Origin: Syntrophaceae bacterium UBA2251
GTDB lineage: Bacteria; Desulfobacterota; Syntrophia; Syntrophales; UBA2251
Direction: 5' to 3'
DNA: 64,000 nt
Assembly (NCBI GenBank): GCA_002347815.1
Contig: DDXV01000016.1
Span: 3,909-67,908, forward strand
Position 1 is the first letter of the stretch; every line of letters starts with the position of its first letter. The notes beneath the pieces are model-generated. The model was not told the origin of the DNA and made no database searches. It saw nothing but the letters and a program-made list of their open reading frames with translations. Made by a program: the position numbers and the translations under genes. Shown here piece by piece: positions 30,973 to 40,061 of the stretch.

Positions 30973-31671
30973 TCACGACTCCTTGAGATAGAACTGCATC
31001 TTGAGATCGCCGACCTCTACCAGATCTCCATCCTTGAGATCACAACGCTGGTCGACCTTCTTGCCGTTCACCTTCAGGTCCTTGCCGCCCGAAGGATTGA
31101 TGAAATACCCGTCCTTCCGGCGGTTCACGAGGGCGGCCACCTTCGGGGCGAAGAACCCCTTGAGCTTGATCAGGGCGCCGTCGTCCTTGCCGATCGTGCT
31201 GATCCGGTCCTTGAGGAGATAATCCTTCTTCTCCGTCGACCCCTCGACGATCAGAAACCCGCCAAGGACGTCCAGCTTTTCCGTCGACACCAGGATTTTC
31301 TTCTGTTCCGTGGGCGACAGCACCATCGTTTCGTCCATCGAATGGCCCCGGAGCGCCGGTTTCTTGACCTGGTCCTCTCCCGGCTTTTCGGAAAAGTACT
31401 CCAGGGTGTGGTTGCCGATCAGGATGACATCCCCGTTGTTCAGGATATATTTTGACACCTTTTTTCCATTGACGAAGGTCCCATTGAGGCTGTTGAGATC
31501 CTCGACACTGAAATCCTGTTCCTCTTTCACGATCCGGGCATGGGATCCGGAAACGGCCTGATTGTCGATCACGAGGTCATTCCCTTCTTTCCTGCCGATG
31601 GTCAGGATGTCCTGTGTCAATGGCATCTCCTTGATGACGGCATCCTTGAACTTGACCTGGATCTTCGCCAT
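30973..31671 (-). CDS. Protein with two FHA domains
   Basis: N-terminal LTIGRKEGNDLVIDNQAVSGSHARIV...NSLNGTFVNGKKV. C-terminal STIGKDDGALIKL...NPSGGKDLKVNGKKV. Confidence 0.85.
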   Translation of the reverse strand: MAKIQVKFKDAVIKEMPLTQDILTIGRKEGNDLVIDNQAVSGSHARIVKEEQDFSVEDLNSLNGTFVNGKKVSKYILNNGDVILIGNHTLEYFSEKPGEDQVKKPALRGHSMDETMVLSPTEQKKILVSTEKLDVLGGFLIVEGSTEKKDYLLKDRISTIGKDDGALIKLKGFFAPKVAALVNRRKDGYFINPSGGKDLKVNGKKVDQRCDLKDGDLVEVGDLKMQFYLKES

Positions 31672-31674
31672 ACT

Positions 31675-32490
31675 TCACCTCCTGCGGCCCCTGAAGAAAT
31701 TGATGAACGATGCAAGCCAACCGGTGTTGGCCAGATAAGCCACGACGACGGTGATGTTGTCCCGGCCGCCGTTCTCATTGGCGAGCTTCACCAGCGTCTG
31801 GCAGGCAAGCGCCGGATCGCGGGTGGAAAGGACAACCATCAAGATGTCGTCATCCGAAACCATGTTGCTGAGCCCGTCGGAACAGAGGACCAGGACGTCG
31901 TCGGCCAGGAGGGTCATCTCCTCCAGATCCACGTCGACCTCGGCTTCGGTCCCGAGGGCCCGGGTCAGGATGTTCTTGATTTCCGATCGATTCGCCTCCT
32001 CGCGGGTGATCAGGTCCCGCTTGACCTGTTCGGCCACCACGGAGTGATCGTCCGTCAGCTGCTCGATGTTCCCGTATCGGATGAGATACAGCCGGCTGTC
32101 CCCGACATGGGCAATGCTTAGCTTGTTTTTCCGGATCAGCGCGGCGACGACGGTCGTTCCCATGCCCCGCCACTGGGCGTTGCTCTCGGAGGCTTCGTAG
32201 ACGGCCATATTGGCCAGACGAACCGCCGAACCGAGCCGGTTGGTCAACTCGGAACGATCCTCGTCGTAGGCCCCGACCTGGAGGGGCGGCCCCGTGCCCG
32301 CGTCGGCGAAATAGCCCCGGATGAGATCCATGGACATCTTGCTCGCCACCTCGCCCGAGGCATGCCCGCCCATGCCGTCCGCCACCGCCAGCAACCCCTG
32401 TTCCGGCAGGAGGCAAAAGGCGTCCTCGTTGTTCGCCCGAACCCGCCCGACGTCCGTTTGCCCGGCGGCGTGCAGCTCAAATGCCTTCAT
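31675..32490 (-). CDS. PP2C-family Ser/Thr protein phosphatase
   Basis: GQTDVGRVRANNEDAF...AVADGMGGHASGEVAS...LLCSDGLSNMV...GGRDNITVVV. It overlaps the kinase stop by 4 nt. Confidence 0.92.
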   Translation of the reverse strand: MKAFELHAAGQTDVGRVRANNEDAFCLLPEQGLLAVADGMGGHASGEVASKMSMDLIRGYFADAGTGPPLQVGAYDEDRSELTNRLGSAVRLANMAVYEASESNAQWRGMGTTVVAALIRKNKLSIAHVGDSRLYLIRYGNIEQLTDDHSVVAEQVKRDLITREEANRSEIKNILTRALGTEAEVDVDLEEMTLLADDVLVLCSDGLSNMVSDDDILMVVLSTRDPALACQTLVKLANENGGRDNITVVVAYLANTGWLASFINFFRGRRR

Positions 32491-34964
32491 GAGACGACCT
32501 TCATCAGTTCCTGGAGGTCATCGACCAGCTCCTTCCCGCGCTGATAACGCTGCGATTTGTCCTTCGCGAGGAGCTTGCCGATGATCGTTTCGAACTGCTC
32601 CGGCAGATCCGGAACCATTTCTCGCACCGACGGCGGCGGCGTACTCGTGATGTTGAAAATGAGGGTGGCGATGCTGTCGCCGGCAAACGGCTTCTCTCCC
32701 GTCAGGAGCTCGAAGAACACGACCCCCAGGGAGAAGAGGTCGGAGGTGCCGTCCACCTTCTGGCCCGCAATCTGTTCCGGCGACATGTAGCTCGGCGTCC
32801 CCATGATGACGCCGGTTTGCGTCTTGGAACTCGCGATGACCCGCGCGATGCCGAAATCGGCCACCTTGATTTCCCCGTTGTTCAGGATCATGATGTTCGC
32901 CGGTTTGATGTCCCGATGCACGATTCCGCTCGCATGGGCGTAATCGAGCGCGCCGGCCACGGAGGAGACGATGCGGACGACTTCAGCCCGGGGCAGGAGC
33001 TGATCCTTCTGGCAGTTCTTGGCCAGATCCGCGCCGTCCAAGAGCTCCATGGCCATGTAGGCGATTTCGTAATCCTCGCCCACATCGTAGATGGTGACGA
33101 TGTTCGGGTGGGCCAGCTTGCCGGCGGCCTCCGCCTCCCGGAAAAACCGCGACTTGATGTCGGCGAGCTGTTCCTCGTCGAACTCCTCGTAGCGCAGGGT
33201 CTTGATGGCCACATCCCGGTTGATCTTGGGATCCTTTCCGAGATACACGGTCCCCATGGCCCCGCGACCGAGCTCCTTCAGGATCTCGTAACGGCCGAGG
33301 GTCGGCCGGGTCTGGGCATTTTCCACGATGACCGTGGAATCCTTCCGGGCGCCGCCCGCGCCGAAGATCACCGTCTCGCCCACGGCCTTGAGTTTCTTGA
33401 CCCGCTCTTCGATGTCCTTGAAGCTCCCGGCCGTTATCACATGTTCGTACACGGCCACGGCCTTGTTGAACATCCGCTTCCGCTCGAAATCCAGGCCGAG
33501 ATTGTAGAGCAGTTCCTTGACGGCCTCGTCCTCCACGGGGCATTTGCGGAACTTTTCGAAAGCCATGTCCAGCATGCCCTGCCCCTGGAAGGAGAGTCCG
33601 AGCATCTTGTTCGTCTCCACGCTGTCCGCCTCGATCCGCTCCTTCGATTGCTCCGTGAAGAGGTATCCCCGCGAGACGACGATCGTGTATCCCGCGAGCA
33701 GCAAGAGCGTCGGATAGAAGACCTTGAGCCAAACCCCCTCCGCCAGCATGAAATAGGCCGCCGTTACCAGCCAGGCCACGAGCAGGACGGACGAGATGAG
33801 GGCGCTGATTCCCGCCTTCAAATGGGGAATTCCCAGGGCCAGGAACAGACCGAACAGGATCAGAACGCCGATCTCCAGCGGTGTGGCCCAACCGGGACGG
33901 ACGATATGGTCGTTGTTCAGGATGTTGCTGATGGCGTTCGCGGTAATGAGCACGGAGGGCATGGCCGTGCCGATGGGCGTCACCTGCATCGTCCCCAGAC
34001 CCGTCGCCGTCGGGGCGATGATGACGATCTTGTTGCGGAACGATTCGGGCGACACCCGGTTGTTGAGGACCTCGACGAAGGGATAGGCCTCATAGCTGCC
34101 GCTGTAGCTGATGAGCATCCGGCTCTGTTCGTGGACCGGGATGCGGATCCTGCGAAACGTGAGCGCTTCGCCGATCACCAGATCTTTCAGATCGTACCCG
34201 AGGTACTTGAGGGACAGCTGGAGGCTCAGAGAAGGGAAGACCCGGCCGCCGTAGTCGATCAGGAGACAGTCGTTTCGCACGGCGCCGTCGCTGTCGGCGG
34301 CGAGGTTGATGTGTCCCAGGGCCAGGGCCGGGGTTGAAAATTCGGGAACGGGCGGGATGAGTTCCCGGGCCGTCACCAGGTCGGGCGCGCTGGCAAAAGA
34401 AACGGAGTTGCGCGCGAGCACCCCGGACATGCTGGCGCTGTCCATCAGGACGGGACCTCCGAGAACGAAGAAGAAGGGCAGAACGACCCGCTGGGAAGCC
34501 CCGATCGCCGTGCTCAGGGCCGCGTCATGGTCCAGGTTTTTCTCGGCCGTCTTCAGCGTGGCGTAGATTCCCGCGACCGATGCATTGTTCTGCAGCCCCG
34601 GCTTCGCCTCGATGGACGCGGTGACATCCCGGATGGCCTGCAATCCCTGGTTCGTGTCCTTTTCCGAGTACAGGATATTGAGGCCGATGACCTTGGCGCC
34701 GTATCCCTGGAGAAGGTCGATCATCCGGGCGATATGGCTCCGCGGCCACGGCCAGCGGCCCAGGGCGTTGATGCTGCTGTCGTCGATGGCGACGACGACC
34801 ACCGGCGAGGTGGTCGGCCCCTCCCGCAGGTTGATCCCCAGATCGTAGAATTTGTATTCCAGAAACTCCACCGGCGACCAGCGGAGGGCATAGACACCGA
34901 CAATCAGCAGCGTGAGGATAACACCGATGAACACATCGGTCCGGAAGACCTTCGTTTTTTTCAT
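32487..34964 (-). CDS. CHASE2 sensor domain / transmembrane / Ser-Thr protein kinase (825 aa)
   Basis: The N-terminus VVVVAIDDSSINALGRWPWPRSHIARMIDLL indicates CHASE2. A cluster of TM helices lies around aa 340-420. The C-terminus YEILKELGRGAMGTVYLG...AIKTL...GIVHRDIKPANIM...DFGIA...GTPSYMSPEQ is a kinase domain. Confidence 0.9.
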   Translation of the reverse strand: MKKTKVFRTDVFIGVILTLLIVGVYALRWSPVEFLEYKFYDLGINLREGPTTSPVVVVAIDDSSINALGRWPWPRSHIARMIDLLQGYGAKVIGLNILYSEKDTNQGLQAIRDVTASIEAKPGLQNNASVAGIYATLKTAEKNLDHDAALSTAIGASQRVVLPFFFVLGGPVLMDSASMSGVLARNSVSFASAPDLVTARELIPPVPEFSTPALALGHINLAADSDGAVRNDCLLIDYGGRVFPSLSLQLSLKYLGYDLKDLVIGEALTFRRIRIPVHEQSRMLISYSGSYEAYPFVEVLNNRVSPESFRNKIVIIAPTATGLGTMQVTPIGTAMPSVLITANAISNILNNDHIVRPGWATPLEIGVLILFGLFLALGIPHLKAGISALISSVLLVAWLVTAAYFMLAEGVWLKVFYPTLLLLAGYTIVVSRGYLFTEQSKERIEADSVETNKMLGLSFQGQGMLDMAFEKFRKCPVEDEAVKELLYNLGLDFERKRMFNKAVAVYEHVITAGSFKDIEERVKKLKAVGETVIFGAGGARKDSTVIVENAQTRPTLGRYEILKELGRGAMGTVYLGKDPKINRDVAIKTLRYEEFDEEQLADIKSRFFREAEAAGKLAHPNIVTIYDVGEDYEIAYMAMELLDGADLAKNCQKDQLLPRAEVVRIVSSVAGALDYAHASGIVHRDIKPANIMILNNGEIKVADFGIARVIASSKTQTGVIMGTPSYMSPEQIAGQKVDGTSDLFSLGVVFFELLTGEKPFAGDSIATLIFNITSTPPPSVREMVPDLPEQFETIIGKLLAKDKSQRYQRGKELVDDLQELMKVVS

Positions 34965-35209
34965 CGCGTTTTTACCTGGTTTTCATTCAATGGCCCCCGA
35001 ACTCGAGAACCGTGCAGGCGGGTGCTCCCCTCCCTCGCCCCCCCGGGCGGCCCCGGTACCCATGGCCCGGAAACGCGCCGCCCGACCGGACGGCGACCGG
35101 AAGTGCTCCCGTCCGACGTCCGATGGCTGTCACGCTAAATAAAATCCTTTTTCTTGTCAACAATTTTCATTCATTTTCGTTCATTTTGGGAATCGGCCCT
35201 TCGAACCGC

Positions 35210-35677
35210 TCAGCCCGCCCTCAAGGCCGCCAAGGCCTTCGGGACCGTATTCTCCGGACTCACTTTGTACCAGGCCGCCAGGATCCGTCCCCCGGCATCG
35301 ATCAGGAAGGCGGACCGGACGATCCCGAAATATTTCCTCCCGTAGAGGGATTTCTCCTGCCAGACGCCATAGGCTTCAGCCACGACGTGATCCGGGTCGG
35401 ACAGGAGGGGGAAATTCAGCTTCAGCCTGTCGCTGAACGTCTTCTGCGCCGCGACGGAATCGGGACTGATCCCCACGGCGTCGGCTCCCAGGGCGTCGAG
35501 TTTGGCCCGTGCGTCCCGCACGGCCTCGGTCTGCTTCGTTCACCCGGAGGTCCCGGCCTTCGGATAGAAATAGACGAGAAGCTTCCGTCCCTTGAAGTCC
35601 GACCGCTTCACCCATGCGCCCGCCGGATCCCTGAGGGAAAAGGCCGGGGCCGCATCACCGACGTTGAGCTTCGCCAT
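35210..35677 (-). CDS. bcp: Bcp-type peroxiredoxin with in-frame UGA (predicted selenocysteine) at the peroxidatic position, 155 aa
   Basis: AGGAGG lies 6 nt before the ATG at 35677. The reading is [48 protein letters not shown](35540-35542)-TKQTEAVRDARAKLDALGADAVGISPDSVAAQKTFSDRLKLNFPLLSDPDHVVAEAYGVW...LIDAGGRILAAWYKV. The frame is continuous, and the UGA aligns with Cys of the YFYPKxxTxGC motif. Confidence 0.75.
35504..35525 (-). promoter_or_regulatory. SECIS-like stem-loop 14 nt downstream of the UGA
   Basis: The mRNA reads GGCCGUGCG-GGA-CGCAC(G)GGCC: a 9-bp GC-rich stem with one bulged G and a G-containing apical loop, about 24 nt from the UGA. Confidence 0.6.
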
Positions 35678-35730
35678 CGTCCGCCTCCTGGGGTCCGCCG
35701 GCGTTGCGCCCGGCGGGATTGGGGGAATGC

Positions 35731-37401
35731 CTAAACGATTCCCGAGATATTTCCCGCGTCGTCGATATCGATGTGATACGCGGCCGGCGTTTTCGACAGA
35801 CCCGGCATGCGGAGGATCTCGCCGGTAATGGGGATCAGGAACCCCGCCCCGGAGGCGATCTTGATTTCCCGCACGGTGACGATGAAGTCCCGCGGCATGC
35901 CGAGGAGGCCCGGGTTGTCCGACAGGGACTGCTGGGTCTTGGCGATGCAGACGGGCAGCTTGTCGAAGCCGAACTTGCGGATGAGTTCCAGGTTGCGCTT
36001 GGCCAGCGGCCGGTAGTCGATGGACACCGCGCCGTAGATCTCGCTGGCGACCGTGAAGATCTTGTCCTCCACCGGCTGCTCCCAGTCATACAGGGTGCGG
36101 AACCGCCCGGTCGCCCCCGCGATGAGCCGGACCGTCTTTTCCGCGAGTTCCAGGCCGCCCTCGCCGCCCAGCCGGAAGATGTCCGCCGGCGCGATATTCA
36201 TCCCCTCGCGCTCCGCGGCGTCCACCACCGCCCGGATCTCCTCGTCCGTGTCGGACGGAAACCGGTTCAGGGCGATGATGCAGGGAACGTTGAATTTGTC
36301 GATATTTCCGTAATGCTTCCTCAAATTCGCCATGCCCAGGACCGCCGCGCGGGCATTGGGGACATTCAAATCTTCGCGTGCCACGCCGGCGTGGTACTTG
36401 AGGGCGCGCACCGTGGCCACCAGGACGACGATCCGGGGATTGAGATCACCGTAGGGCGCCACGATGTCGAAGAACTTCTCCGCGCCCAGGTCGAAGCCGA
36501 AGCCCGCTTCCGTCACCACGTAATCCGCCAGGCGGAGCGCGAGATCGGTGCCCATGATGCTGTTGGTCCCCTGGGCGATGTTGGCGAAGGGCCCGCCATG
36601 AATGATGGCCGGCACCCCTTCCGTCGTCTGCACCAGGTTGGGAAGCAGGGCGTACTTCAGCAGGGCCGTGACCGCGCCTTCGACCTTGAGGTCGCCCGCG
36701 ATGACGGGCTTGTCGTCATAGGTGAAGCCCACCAGAATCTTGCGGATCTTGTCCTTCAATTCCGCGTAGGACCTCGACAGGCAGAGGATGGCCATGATTT
36801 CGCTCGACGGGACGATATCGAACCCCGTCTCGCGGGGAACGCCGTTCGTCGATCCCCCGAGGCCGATCACGATGTCCCTGAGCGACCGGTCGTTCATGTC
36901 GACGACGCGGCGCCAGGTGATCTTGCGGGGGTCTATGTTTAAGGGATTGCCGTGGAAGACGGCGTTGTCCACGAGGGCCGACAGGAGGTTGTGCGCGCTT
37001 TCCACCGCCGGGAAGTCGTTGGTGAAGTGGAGGTTGATGTCGTCCACGGGCAGGACGCGGGACAGGCCGCCGCCGGTCGCCCCCCCCTTGATGCCGAACA
37101 CCGGCCCCAGCGACGGCTCCCGGAGCGCCGCGATCGTGGATTTCCCCAGCCGGGCCAGGGCCTGCGCGAGCCCGATCGACACCGTCGTCTTGCCTTCGCC
37201 CGCGGGTGTGGGCGTCATGGCCGAGACGAGGATCAGGTTCGAATCGTCCCGGCGCGGAAAGCGCCGGATTGCCTCGAGGCGGACCTTCGCCTTGTAGCGG
37301 CCGTAATATTCCAGATCCTCTTCCCGAAGGCCGATGACGGACGCGATGTCCCGGATCGGCCGGAGTCGCTGCGGGGCGGATGTTTTTTTCGAAGTTCCCA
37401 T
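35731..37401 (-). CDS. fhs: Formate--tetrahydrofolate ligase
   Basis: LILVSAMTPTPAGEGKTTVSIGLAQAL...PSLGPVFGIKGGATGGG...VHGGPFANIA. It is 556 aa long. Confidence 0.95.
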   Translation of the reverse strand: MGTSKKTSAPQRLRPIRDIASVIGLREEDLEYYGRYKAKVRLEAIRRFPRRDDSNLILVSAMTPTPAGEGKTTVSIGLAQALARLGKSTIAALREPSLGPVFGIKGGATGGGLSRVLPVDDINLHFTNDFPAVESAHNLLSALVDNAVFHGNPLNIDPRKITWRRVVDMNDRSLRDIVIGLGGSTNGVPRETGFDIVPSSEIMAILCLSRSYAELKDKIRKILVGFTYDDKPVIAGDLKVEGAVTALLKYALLPNLVQTTEGVPAIIHGGPFANIAQGTNSIMGTDLALRLADYVVTEAGFGFDLGAEKFFDIVAPYGDLNPRIVVLVATVRALKYHAGVAREDLNVPNARAAVLGMANLRKHYGNIDKFNVPCIIALNRFPSDTDEEIRAVVDAAEREGMNIAPADIFRLGGEGGLELAEKTVRLIAGATGRFRTLYDWEQPVEDKIFTVASEIYGAVSIDYRPLAKRNLELIRKFGFDKLPVCIAKTQQSLSDNPGLLGMPRDFIVTVREIKIASGAGFLIPITGEILRMPGLSKTPAAYHIDIDDAGNISGIV

Positions 37402-38210: not shown

Positions 38211-39206
38211 ATGAAGGCATCCTTGAAACTCAACCGCCGGGCCTTTCTCACGGCCACGGGCGGGGCGGCCCTGATCGGCGCGGCGAGCGCGCTGGGAGCG
38301 CCCCGAGAGGCGATGGCCTGCCGGGGAAGGCTCGCGACGCTCATCGACCTGACCCGCTGCGACGGCTGCGACGGGCAGGCGATCGCGGCCTGCGTTTCCG
38401 CCTGCAAGACGGCCAAGGCCGGCGACGTTCCGCAACCGGTCGACCCCATCCCCATCCCCTTCCCCAGCCGCAAGGTCGAGGACTGGTCCAGACGACAGGC
38501 GGTGTCGGACCGTCTCACGCCGTACAACCTCATCTACATCCAGAAGGCGGAAGCGGATACGGGCGGCCGGAAGACGACGGTGTTCATCCCTCGGCGGTGC
38601 ATGCACTGCGACAACCCGGCCTGCGCCACCCTCTGCCCTTTTTCCTCCAACCACAAGTTCGAAAACGGAGCGGTCGTCATCGATCCGGATACCTGCTTCG
38701 GCGGCGCCAAGTGCAAGACGGTCTGCCCCTGGGAGATCCCGCAGCGGCAATCCGGGATCGGGATCTACCTCAAGGTCCTGCCGACGCTCATGGGGAACGG
38801 GGTCATGTACAAGTGCGATCTCTGCCAGGACCTTCTCGAGGAAGGAAAAACGCCGGCCTGTATCGCGGCCTGTCCGAGGCAGGCCATGGCCATCGGGCCG
38901 CGGGAGGAGATTTTCGCCCGGGCGGAGGCGATGGCGAAACGGATCGGGGGCCACCTTTACGGCCAGGAGGAAAATGGCGGGACCTCCACCCTCTACGTTT
39001 CCCCCGTGCCCTTCGCCGACCTGAACGCCGCGGTTCAGACCGGTCCCGGCCGGCCCCACCTCCGGCCGGTTGCACGGCGCATGGCGGGCTCGGACGGCCT
39101 GGGCAAGGCCGTCCTCGCGGGTCCGGCCCTGGGCGTGGCGGCGGGCATCGCCGGCGTCTTCGCCGCAATCTCCAGACGCAAAGACCGATCGGGAAAGGAG
39201 GAATAG
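38211..39206 (+). CDS. Tat-exported 4Fe-4S cluster protein, HybA/FdnH (DmsB) family, with C-terminal membrane anchor
   Basis: Twin-arginine signal MKASLKLNRRAFLTATGGAALIGAASALGAP. Ferredoxin motifs include CMHCDNPACATLCP, CFGGAKCKTVCP and CDLCQDLLEEGKTPACIAACP. The C-terminal helix is AVLAGPALGVAAGIAGVFAAI. AAGGAGGG RBS. Confidence 0.85.
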   Translation: MKASLKLNRRAFLTATGGAALIGAASALGAPREAMACRGRLATLIDLTRCDGCDGQAIAACVSACKTAKAGDVPQPVDPIPIPFPSRKVEDWSRRQAVSDRLTPYNLIYIQKAEADTGGRKTTVFIPRRCMHCDNPACATLCPFSSNHKFENGAVVIDPDTCFGGAKCKTVCPWEIPQRQSGIGIYLKVLPTLMGNGVMYKCDLCQDLLEEGKTPACIAACPRQAMAIGPREEIFARAEAMAKRIGGHLYGQEENGGTSTLYVSPVPFADLNAAVQTGPGRPHLRPVARRMAGSDGLGKAVLAGPALGVAAGIAGVFAAISRRKDRSGKEE

Positions 39207-39209
39207 GCC

Positions 39210-40061
39210 ATGTCCCAGGATATCCGTGAAGCGGAAAACCGCGTGTTCCGGCACTCCGGACTCGAAATGGCCGAGCACTGGGCGATCGCGCTCTCCGGGC
39301 TCGTCCTCCTGATGTCGGGCATGTTCGAGCTCCCGATGGCGGCGCGCTACCGGATCACCGCCCTTCCCGGCTTCGCCTGGTCGGGGGATTTCATTGCCTC
39401 CCTCTACGTCCACTATGCCGCCTCGCTGGTCTTCGCCGCCGCCGCGTGTTTTCACCTGGTCTACCACGGCCTCCGGGGCGATCTCGGCCTCCTGCCGAAG
39501 CAGGGGGACGTGCGCGCCTCCATCGCCGTGATCAAAACCTTCTTCGGCAAGGGGAAGGAGCCGCCCTTCGGGAAATACCTCCCCGAACAGCGCCTCGCCT
39601 ATCTCGGGATGGCCGTGACCATCGCCGTCCTGATCCTCTCCGGCCTGGTCAAGACCTACAAGAACGTCTTCGCGCCCGACCTCGACTACACGCTCGTCCT
39701 CTGGGCAACGTGGCTGCATAACGCCTTCTTCGTCCTGTTCATCCTGGCCTTTGTCGCGCACATCGGGGCGCTGCTGCTGCGTCCGAACTGGCCGATGATC
39801 CGGGGGATCTTCACGGGAACCGTGCGCCTGGACTACGCCCGGCACCGCCATCCGCTCTGGATCGCAACGCTGGAACCGCCGCCCGCCCCGCCCGAAGCGG
39901 CGGCGGAACGGGCCGTGCCCGCACCTGTTCCGCCGGAAGCGGCCCCGGAGACGACACCGGAAACCGTCGCCGCCGAAACCGAAGCGGACCTTCCGCAGAC
40001 CCCTCCGGAGGGAGAGGCTACATCCCCGGCGGACGAACCGGACGGCGCCGCGCGGACCTGA
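39210..40061 (+). CDS. Di-haem cytochrome b membrane subunit (FdnI / Ni-Fe hydrogenase b-type cytochrome family) with Pro/Ala/Glu-rich tail
   Basis: RHSGLEMAEHWAIALSGLVLLMSG, HYAASLVFAAAACFHLVYHG and WLHNAFFVLFILAFVAHIGALL show four TM helices with conserved His. It begins 3 nt after the FeS gene. Confidence 0.8.
   Translation: MSQDIREAENRVFRHSGLEMAEHWAIALSGLVLLMSGMFELPMAARYRITALPGFAWSGDFIASLYVHYAASLVFAAAACFHLVYHGLRGDLGLLPKQGDVRASIAVIKTFFGKGKEPPFGKYLPEQRLAYLGMAVTIAVLILSGLVKTYKNVFAPDLDYTLVLWATWLHNAFFVLFILAFVAHIGALLLRPNWPMIRGIFTGTVRLDYARHRHPLWIATLEPPPAPPEAAAERAVPAPVPPEAAPETTPETVAAETEADLPQTPPEGEATSPADEPDGAART

Follow-up and report, generated by a model that had tools for sequence, protein, structure and literature searches.

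A Bcp-type peroxiredoxin gene of an uncultured Syntrophales bacterium that very probably encodes selenocysteine at its catalytic position

The locus at positions 35677 to 35210 (minus strand) of the DNA analyzed here raises the question of whether a bcp gene, encoding a peroxiredoxin (Prx) and interrupted by a single in-frame TGA, is a decaying gene, a product of sequencing error, or a gene whose UGA is read as selenocysteine (Sec). The DNA is a stretch of 64,000 nucleotides (nt) from contig DDXV01000016.1 of Syntrophaceae bacterium UBA2251, referred to below as the window, and all positions are counted from its first letter. The original prediction, made from the letters alone, was of a probable selenoprotein missed by open reading frame (ORF) calling. 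That proposal stands: the locus is very probably a functional gene of the Bcp/PrxQ type in which UGA codon 46 would specify Sec in place of the peroxidatic cysteine. The reading is carried by the frame itself, by the alignment column that U and C share, by conservation of the UGA in orthologs, by purifying selection on both sides of it, and by RNA-level constraint immediately after it, all of them properties of sequence.

Read on the minus strand from the ATG at 35675-35677 to the final TGA, the complete gene (35210-35677) comprises 155 codons, with Sec predicted at residue 46. A Shine-Dalgarno sequence, AGGAGG (35684-35689, minus strand), can be read 6 nt 5' of the ATG; it is kept in the close relative L001 and appears as GGGAGG at the equivalent site of L202, a Cys-encoding ortholog. 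Forty-five sense codons precede the in-frame TGA at 35540-35542 (minus strand), and 109 codons, opening TKQTEAVRDARAKLDALG, lie beyond it. This TGA is the only interruption of a frame that is otherwise open from 35677 to 35210, and its assignment as the codon of a peroxidatic Sec draws on the Cys-column alignment and the ortholog TGA codons presented below. The true stop codon (35210-35212, minus strand) is itself UGA, which shows that UGA serves as an ordinary stop in this organism and that its reading depends on context; an alternative genetic code in which UGA is sense genome-wide was rejected because bcp terminates at UGA itself. The 155-residue product, translated as the Sec form, contains no cysteine, hence none five residues downstream (+5) of U46, as expected of the 1-Sec type that had been proposed. 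On rereading, the statements of the original prediction about the ATG, the spacing of the AGGAGG, the position of the TGA, the continuation of the frame, the missing +5 Cys, and the coordinates of the hairpin discussed below were all correct. A mechanical ORF list breaks the gene into two spurious pieces, an N-terminal ORF of 45 amino acids (aa) that ends at the Sec UGA (35540-35677, minus strand) and a C-terminal ORF of 103 aa with a GTG start at V53 (35210-35521, minus strand). Misannotation of the locus, also foreseen, is evident in the JGI record of the contig (Iso3TCLC_10000344, 108,473 bp, sample 3300002821; the window covers its positions 3910-67909), where the 45-aa and 103-aa ORFs are called as separate genes and the 45-aa piece matches PF00578.

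For profile and structure searches, Cys was substituted for U46 in the query. The protein matched Pfam AhpC-TSA (PF00578) at 2.5e-33 over residues 6 to 132 (115 bits against a cutoff of 26) and the NCBIfam Bcp equivalog NF006960 at 153.8 bits over residues 1 to 141 (cutoff, 140), and it aligned end to end with solved Bcp structures, among them 5enu_A, 5iph_A, and 3gkk. Since the match to 5enu_A is at 5e-28, a thioredoxin fold is near-certain for the predicted product. In 5enu_A and 5iph_A, the Cys of "PGC-T" is the partner of residue 46, which is likewise aligned with the Cys of the closest full-length homologs (65 to 86% identity, several of them from Syntrophus), which read KAGT[SP]GC-T[KR]QTEAVRDA. 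In these alignments U and C share one column, and the UGA occupies the peroxidatic-Cys column of the PxxxTxxC motif, which is where the original prediction had placed it. The active-site motif of the window protein, P39-K-A-G-T43-S-G-U46 (35540-35563, minus strand), has the form PxxxTxxU described for Sec-Prx (PMC13188914). The codon for R121 (35315-35317, minus strand) lies in GIVRSAFLID, aligned with GIERSTFLID of 5enu_A and 5iph_A; from what is known of the Prx family, R121 would be the conserved active-site Arg.

The UGA is conserved among relatives, for which Bcp loci from genomes are labeled L002 to L080 and those from metagenomes L081 to L200. The best genome match is a Syntrophales metagenome-assembled genome (MAG). 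L001, a Syntrophales MAG from another study, is 95.6% identical in nt over 6.4 kb and has TGA at codon 46; its bcp differs from the window copy at 23 codons, 15 of them synonymously and 8 nonsynonymously. The ratio of nonsynonymous to synonymous substitution rates (dN/dS) of bcp is 0.18 against L001 and 0.23 against the Cys ortholog L202, and it is below 1 on either side of the UGA, the N-terminal value being based on few substitutions (5 against L001). TGA at codon 46 together with an intact N-terminal half recurs in the DNA of L214 (88% aa identity), L215 (76%), and L216 (72%), and at 56 to 61% identity L138, L082, and L160 have the same TGA with both the N-terminal and the C-terminal halves intact. 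UGA stands at codon 46 in 16 of 80 species-representative genome loci. Metagenomes were scanned for a degenerate DNA version of F-[FY]-P-K-x-x-T-x-G-TGA-T, with at least 120 matches, and all of those listed were otherwise open Bcp-like frames with UGA at codon 46. Overall, the codon-46 UGA is common to at least 135 Bcp loci.

Searches with the C-terminal fragment tell how such genes have been deposited. When the 103-aa fragment was used as a protein query, about 96 of the 120 best relatives (66 to 85% identity) were calls of 90 to 108 aa, and 21 of the 120 were full-length Cys forms. The short calls that were inspected start at or near the same residue as the 103-aa ORF, and in the gene tables of P0121, P0123, P0144, and P0171 a 45-aa AhpC-TSA ORF ends 18 nt before a 103-aa ORF. 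The exact 103-aa fragment is found on four contigs, which implies an upstream stop in each, and falls in a cluster (P0026, 26 members) named "peroxiredoxin Q/BCP." Clusters P0121 to P0216 hold many deposited proteins of about 103 aa with that same name, across JGI, ENA, NCBI, and Logan; the split was confirmed in the DNA of 4 of these and in the gene table of 1 more. These deposits point to a systematic split-gene misannotation of a predicted Sec-Bcp clade.

Just after the UGA lies the hairpin that the original prediction likened to a bacterial selenocysteine insertion sequence (SECIS). This putative element, GGCCGUGCG-GGA-CGCAC(G)GGCC (35504-35525, minus strand), starts 14 nt after the UGA. 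It has a perfect 7-bp core at 35507-35523 (minus strand), and its apical loop, GGA (35514-35516), lies 23 nt after the UGA. Published criteria for the bacterial SECIS (bSECIS) are an apical loop of 3 to 9 nt, a stem of 4 to 16 bp, G in the first two loop positions, a gap of 16 to 37 nt between UGA and loop, and a minimum free energy (MFE) of -7.5 kcal/mol or lower (PMC13188914). The window hairpin passes four of four, with its GGA loop, 7-bp perfect stem (9 bp if one bulged G is allowed), 23-nt spacing, and -10.4 kcal/mol. The part of the claim that concerned the presence of the hairpin, its loop, and its spacing thus stands; as evidence, however, its shape and distance are weak, because such hairpins are common in this GC-rich coding DNA.

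Several observations weigh against reading the UGA as Sec, beginning with the small number of substitutions behind the N-terminal dN/dS. The fold is not distinctive against dinucleotide shuffles (z = +0.44), and an equally stable hairpin appears in 16% of synonymous recodings drawn with the codon usage of the genome (the synonymous-recoding null for the hairpin is 16% and 46%). All four bSECIS criteria are passed by 27% of synonymous recodings and by 10% of random in-frame sites in other genes of the window. The position of the TGA is above chance; the hairpin alone is not and was set aside as primary evidence, and the bSECIS fit is only weakly informative. An ortholog that is 86% identical and encodes Cys with TGT carries an identical hairpin, so the hairpin alone is no proof of Sec decoding. 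As for the machinery, none of selA, selB, and selD is among the approximately 50 genes of the window by NCBIfam annotation, and ARAGORN found no tRNA, and with it no tRNA-Sec, in the 64 kb. The parts of the contig beyond both ends of the window (record 1-73,714, about 10 kb extra) likewise contain no selA, selB, or selD and no tRNA. The absence of Sec machinery from these 74 kb of contig speaks little about the whole genome. For a related organism, Syntrophus aciditrophicus, a total of 19 selenoproteins is reported, with a peroxiredoxin among them (PMC1794560).

Comparison of Sec forms with Cys forms bears more directly on whether the RNA after the UGA is constrained. Structure in the +6 to +50 region has a mean z of -1.11 in Sec forms (n = 135) versus -0.21 in Cys forms (n = 55; P = 1.4e-7). 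Loops of the Sec-form hairpins start 12 to 24 nt after the UGA, whereas loop positions in Cys forms are flat, and G is found in the first two loop positions of 87% of Sec forms versus 55% of Cys forms. In a perfect-stem implementation, the bSECIS criteria are passed by 36% of Sec forms versus 13% of Cys forms. The 31 nt that follow the UGA (35509-35539, minus strand) form an element with frozen synonymous sites that is nt identical in L214, L215, and L216, and Sec-form orthologs with as little as 72% protein identity still share it. Among codons 47 to 58 that encode the same amino acid, the share of identical codons was compared with that in the rest of the gene by Fisher's test; it was 11/11 versus 57/102 in L215 (P = 0.0026) and 11/11 versus 49/96 in L216 (P = 0.0011). 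Two Cys forms that are equally distant as proteins, L204 (Syntrophus gentianae) and L205, gave 6/9 and 6/11 (P ~ 0.4). In these two the EAVRDA peptide is retained with different codons, the hairpin is lost, and the local MFE is -4.3 and -9.0 versus -14.8 and -16.1. The same hairpin is present in L138, a Sec form at 61% identity, with a compensatory change from C-G to A-U at the outer pair, and in L215 and L216 the replacement R57L leaves the outer GGCC:GGCC pairs in place and puts U where the bulged G was. The group-level structure, the frozen synonymous sites, and the compensatory change together support the view that the hairpin would act as a functional SECIS. A search of the window against Rfam matched no family, and this null is uninformative on the point because we know of no general bacterial SECIS family there.

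These comparisons also bear on the other ways in which the TGA could be explained. According to one, the gene is dead or dying, a TGT or TGC Cys codon having mutated to TGA. This would agree with the single substitution that separates TGA from TGT, with the TGT of the 86% identical syntenic ortholog, with the two fragments into which gene callers split the locus, and with the lack of any visible Sec machinery in 74 kb of contig. Such a pseudogene is nonetheless strongly disfavored, and we consider it very unlikely: orthologs over the whole range from 95 to 56% identity retain the TGA, their two halves being intact and free of a second lesion, dN/dS is 0.18 to 0.23, UGA stands at exactly codon 46 in at least 135 loci, and TGA forms alone have frozen synonymous sites following the UGA, which a decaying gene would not show.

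We assign a similarly small probability to a UGA that is not read as Sec, the machinery being absent or lost. Translation would then terminate, with or without reinitiation at the GTG at 35521, to give a 45-aa peptide and perhaps an inactive 103-aa fragment, or else a near-cognate Trp or Cys tRNA would suppress the codon. The 103-aa fragment lacks the active-site loop, and yet the N-terminal 45 codons are conserved at the protein level in all Sec-form orthologs; the RNA-level constraint seen directly past the UGA is to be expected of a SECIS, and the Syntrophus relatives are documented users of Sec. On the other side are the lack of Sec machinery genes in the 74 kb of contig, the UGA that is also the normal stop codon of bcp, and the GTG start located 6 codons after the UGA. 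Finally, faulty sequencing or assembly that replaced TGY with TGA, a single-base error that is conceivable for a metagenome assembly judged on one contig, has next to no probability, given that the 103-aa call, implying an upstream stop, is found on four contigs and that independent MAGs and assemblies of other studies (L001, L214, L215, and L216) share the codon-46 TGA.

With codon 46 very probably read as Sec, a mechanism can be proposed in which recognition of the SECIS by SelB, incorporation of selenium, peroxidase activity, and the identity of the reductant follow by analogy. SelB-GTP carrying Sec-tRNA(Sec) would bind the hairpin in the mRNA, the apical loop of which (GGA) is 23 nt beyond the UGA, and hand Sec to the ribosome at codon 46 in competition with release factor 2. 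Translation would then proceed to the final UGA (35210-35212), which has no such hairpin context. In the enzyme, Sec46 would be oxidized by peroxide to a selenenic acid and, with no internal resolving Cys, would be reduced directly by an external thiol, either thioredoxin or glutaredoxin or a low-molecular-weight thiol. Because there is no Cys anywhere in the 155-aa product, it would act as a "1-Sec" peroxiredoxin.

The closest syntenic ortholog of the window gene, P0001 (L202:3001-3585; also in L201 and L203), is a Cys form with 86% aa identity. It holds the same syntenic position, next to an Fe-S protein, an ACT-domain protein, and formate-tetrahydrofolate (THF) ligase followed by Bcp. Its codon 46 is TGT, and the codons of the hairpin, 51 to 58, are nt identical to those of the window in a gene with 47 differing codons out of 155; between codon 46 and the hairpin it differs from the Sec forms at codon 50 only. 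The P0001 frame also extends about 39 codons beyond the stop position of the window gene, giving a protein of 194 aa. Most relatives at 70 to 88% identity are Sec forms with the identical 31-nt element, and more distant Cys forms are without the hairpin. A recent switch from Sec to Cys in P0001 that left a fossil SECIS behind is the simplest reading, because most surrounding relatives are Sec forms sharing the element; we put it forward as a suggestive but tentative possibility that may well not hold. The alternative by parsimony, a hairpin that arose first in a Cys-encoding ancestor, was dropped because the surrounding clade consists mostly of Sec forms. A survey published in 2006 (Zhang et al.) recorded no Sec-to-Cys events in Prx (PMC1794560), and P0001, if this interpretation is true, would be an example of one.

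A separate tendency concerns the resolving Cys. A Cys at +5 is present in 35 of 126 Sec-form Bcp proteins versus 51 of 55 Cys forms, and 47 Sec forms are entirely free of Cys. When the proteins are clustered at 70% identity, the +5 Cys is missing in 52 of 77 Sec clusters versus 3 of 32 Cys clusters, figures that are suggestive only, as the Sec and Cys sets were sampled differently. A preference of Sec-Bcp proteins for dispensing with the +5 Cys is likewise a tentative proposal; if true, the loss would suggest a shift of the catalytic cycle from 2-Cys to 1-Sec.

The enzyme family itself is not new, as the original prediction acknowledged. Sec-Prx with a TxxU motif (PF00578/COG1225) has been a known bacterial selenoprotein family since 2001-2005 (PMC1088965, PMC1794560). 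It is reported from S. aciditrophicus and other syntrophic Deltaproteobacteria, and PMC1794560 lists it for Syntrophus, Syntrophobacter, Geobacter, and Anaeromyxobacter. The window protein shares fold family, motif, and Sec position with the TxxU Sec-Prx of selenoproteome surveys (PMC1088965, PMC1794560, PMC13188914), and the window gene, like that family, has widespread Cys homologs and, shortly past its UGA, a SECIS-like hairpin. There is no essential difference between them; the window copy comes from an uncultured member of the Syntrophales and is without a resolving Cys. On every sequence-level criterion that we tested, the window gene belongs with the Sec-Prx.

Comparison with other known systems narrows the assignment. 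PrxU of Eubacterium acidaminophilum is reported as an experimentally verified Sec-peroxiredoxin (Sohling et al. 2001, as that work is cited in PMC13188914); it resembles the window protein in being a thioredoxin-fold peroxidase with a catalytic Sec from UGA, and it shows that Sec-Prx enzymes are real and active. It belongs, however, to another Prx subfamily, and the window protein, at 47.4 bits against a cutoff of 270 for NF040737, is not a PrxU ortholog. Bcp/PrxQ enzymes of the Cys type (E. coli Bcp and the Xanthomonas and Burkholderia structures 3gkk, 5iiz, and 5enu) are close enough that the window protein scores above the NF006960 cutoff, but the window protein has Sec in place of the peroxidatic Cys and lacks the +5 Cys. 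The Prx-like thiol:disulfide oxidoreductase selenoproteins (UxxC/UxxU, PF00578), which are also found in Syntrophus and Geobacter (PMC1794560), are of the same Pfam clan and contain Sec, as the window protein is predicted to do. Their UxxC/UxxU motif is absent from the window protein, in which the motif is TxxU and U46 is followed by T-K-Q-T-E.

The window gene is mainly an annotation correction, the enzyme family and the use of Sec in this bacterial group being already known, and it leaves knowledge of Sec decoding and of peroxiredoxin chemistry unchanged. With it, the selenoproteome of this uncultured syntroph, a member of the Syntrophales obtained from a methanogenic enrichment, would gain a Bcp of the 1-Sec type. 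Like this bcp, about a hundred related clusters of proteins stand in public databases as 103-aa fragments that are named "peroxiredoxin Q/BCP" and lack the active site, and as a consequence the capacity for peroxide defense and the dependence on selenium are undercounted among syntrophic anaerobes as well as many bacteria of soil and sediment.

The neighborhood of bcp holds several further features. Between the formate-THF ligase stop codon (35731-35733) and the bcp ribosome-binding site lies a perfect 7-bp inverted repeat, CCGCCGG-N8-CCGGCGG (35695-35716, minus strand), whose arms are conserved and whose loop is variable in L001 and L202, with no run of T after it. It could be a hairpin for processing, stability, or translational control, which would suggest cotranscription of fhs and bcp. 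On the 3' side of bcp, an AT-rich 60-nt spacer, AAAATGAACGAAAATGAATGAAAATTGTTGACAAGAAAAAGGATTTTATTTAGCGTG, with TTGACA (35140-35205, minus strand) is conserved in L001; a consensus scan gave no sigma-70 promoter in this spacer. The spacer precedes a CHASE2 Ser/Thr-kinase gene (32487-34964), which is part of a signaling trio directly 3' of bcp (30973-34964, minus strand) comprising the CHASE2 Ser/Thr kinase (825 aa), a PP2C phosphatase (271 aa), and an FHA-domain protein (232 aa). At 38211-40061 (plus strand) are genes for an HmcB/HybA-like Fe-S protein and a formate-dehydrogenase-gamma-like cytochrome b, with no catalytic FdhA, which is often Sec-containing, adjacent to them; the same pair also adjoins the ACT-fhs-bcp block in L202.

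Other split or interrupted genes were considered as selenoprotein candidates. The window was scanned for a second gene with an in-frame TGA flanked by at least 35 coding-like codons on each side, and the candidates were adjacent same-frame gene pairs. At L210:16716-18014, 3.9 kb outside the window toward the contig start, two assemblies have calls of 432 aa and 167 aa on identical sequence. The product is a putative outer-membrane-type protein with an Arg/Gly-rich center, and the locus may be a frameshift or a miscall; as a further TGA gene it was rejected, since identical sequences leave only a difference in gene calling. Beside the Sec-Bcp ortholog of L216, a PTPS/QueD-like gene (L216:714-1093) is split into calls of 54 aa and 72 aa. 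It too was rejected as a selenoprotein gene, the split being a frameshift, probably an assembly error, and not an in-frame TGA.

By NCBIfam annotation, the window contains a cluster of beta-oxidation, thiolase, and acyl-CoA dehydrogenase genes; mdh and glmM; the PP2C, FHA, and Ser/Thr kinase trio; bcp, formate-THF ligase, the ACT-domain protein, and the Fe-S/cytochrome b pair; and purL/purQ, pyrG, glmS, moaC, ilvE, lolA, and a glycogen debranching enzyme. Between 1436 and 25155, at least six SCP-x-type thiolase genes are paired with DUF35/ChsH2 OB-fold genes, and several acyl-CoA dehydrogenases, FAD amine-oxidase-like proteins, and CoA ligases are encoded in the same region, which looks like a large island for beta-oxidation or for the degradation of alicyclic or aromatic acids, typical of syntrophs.

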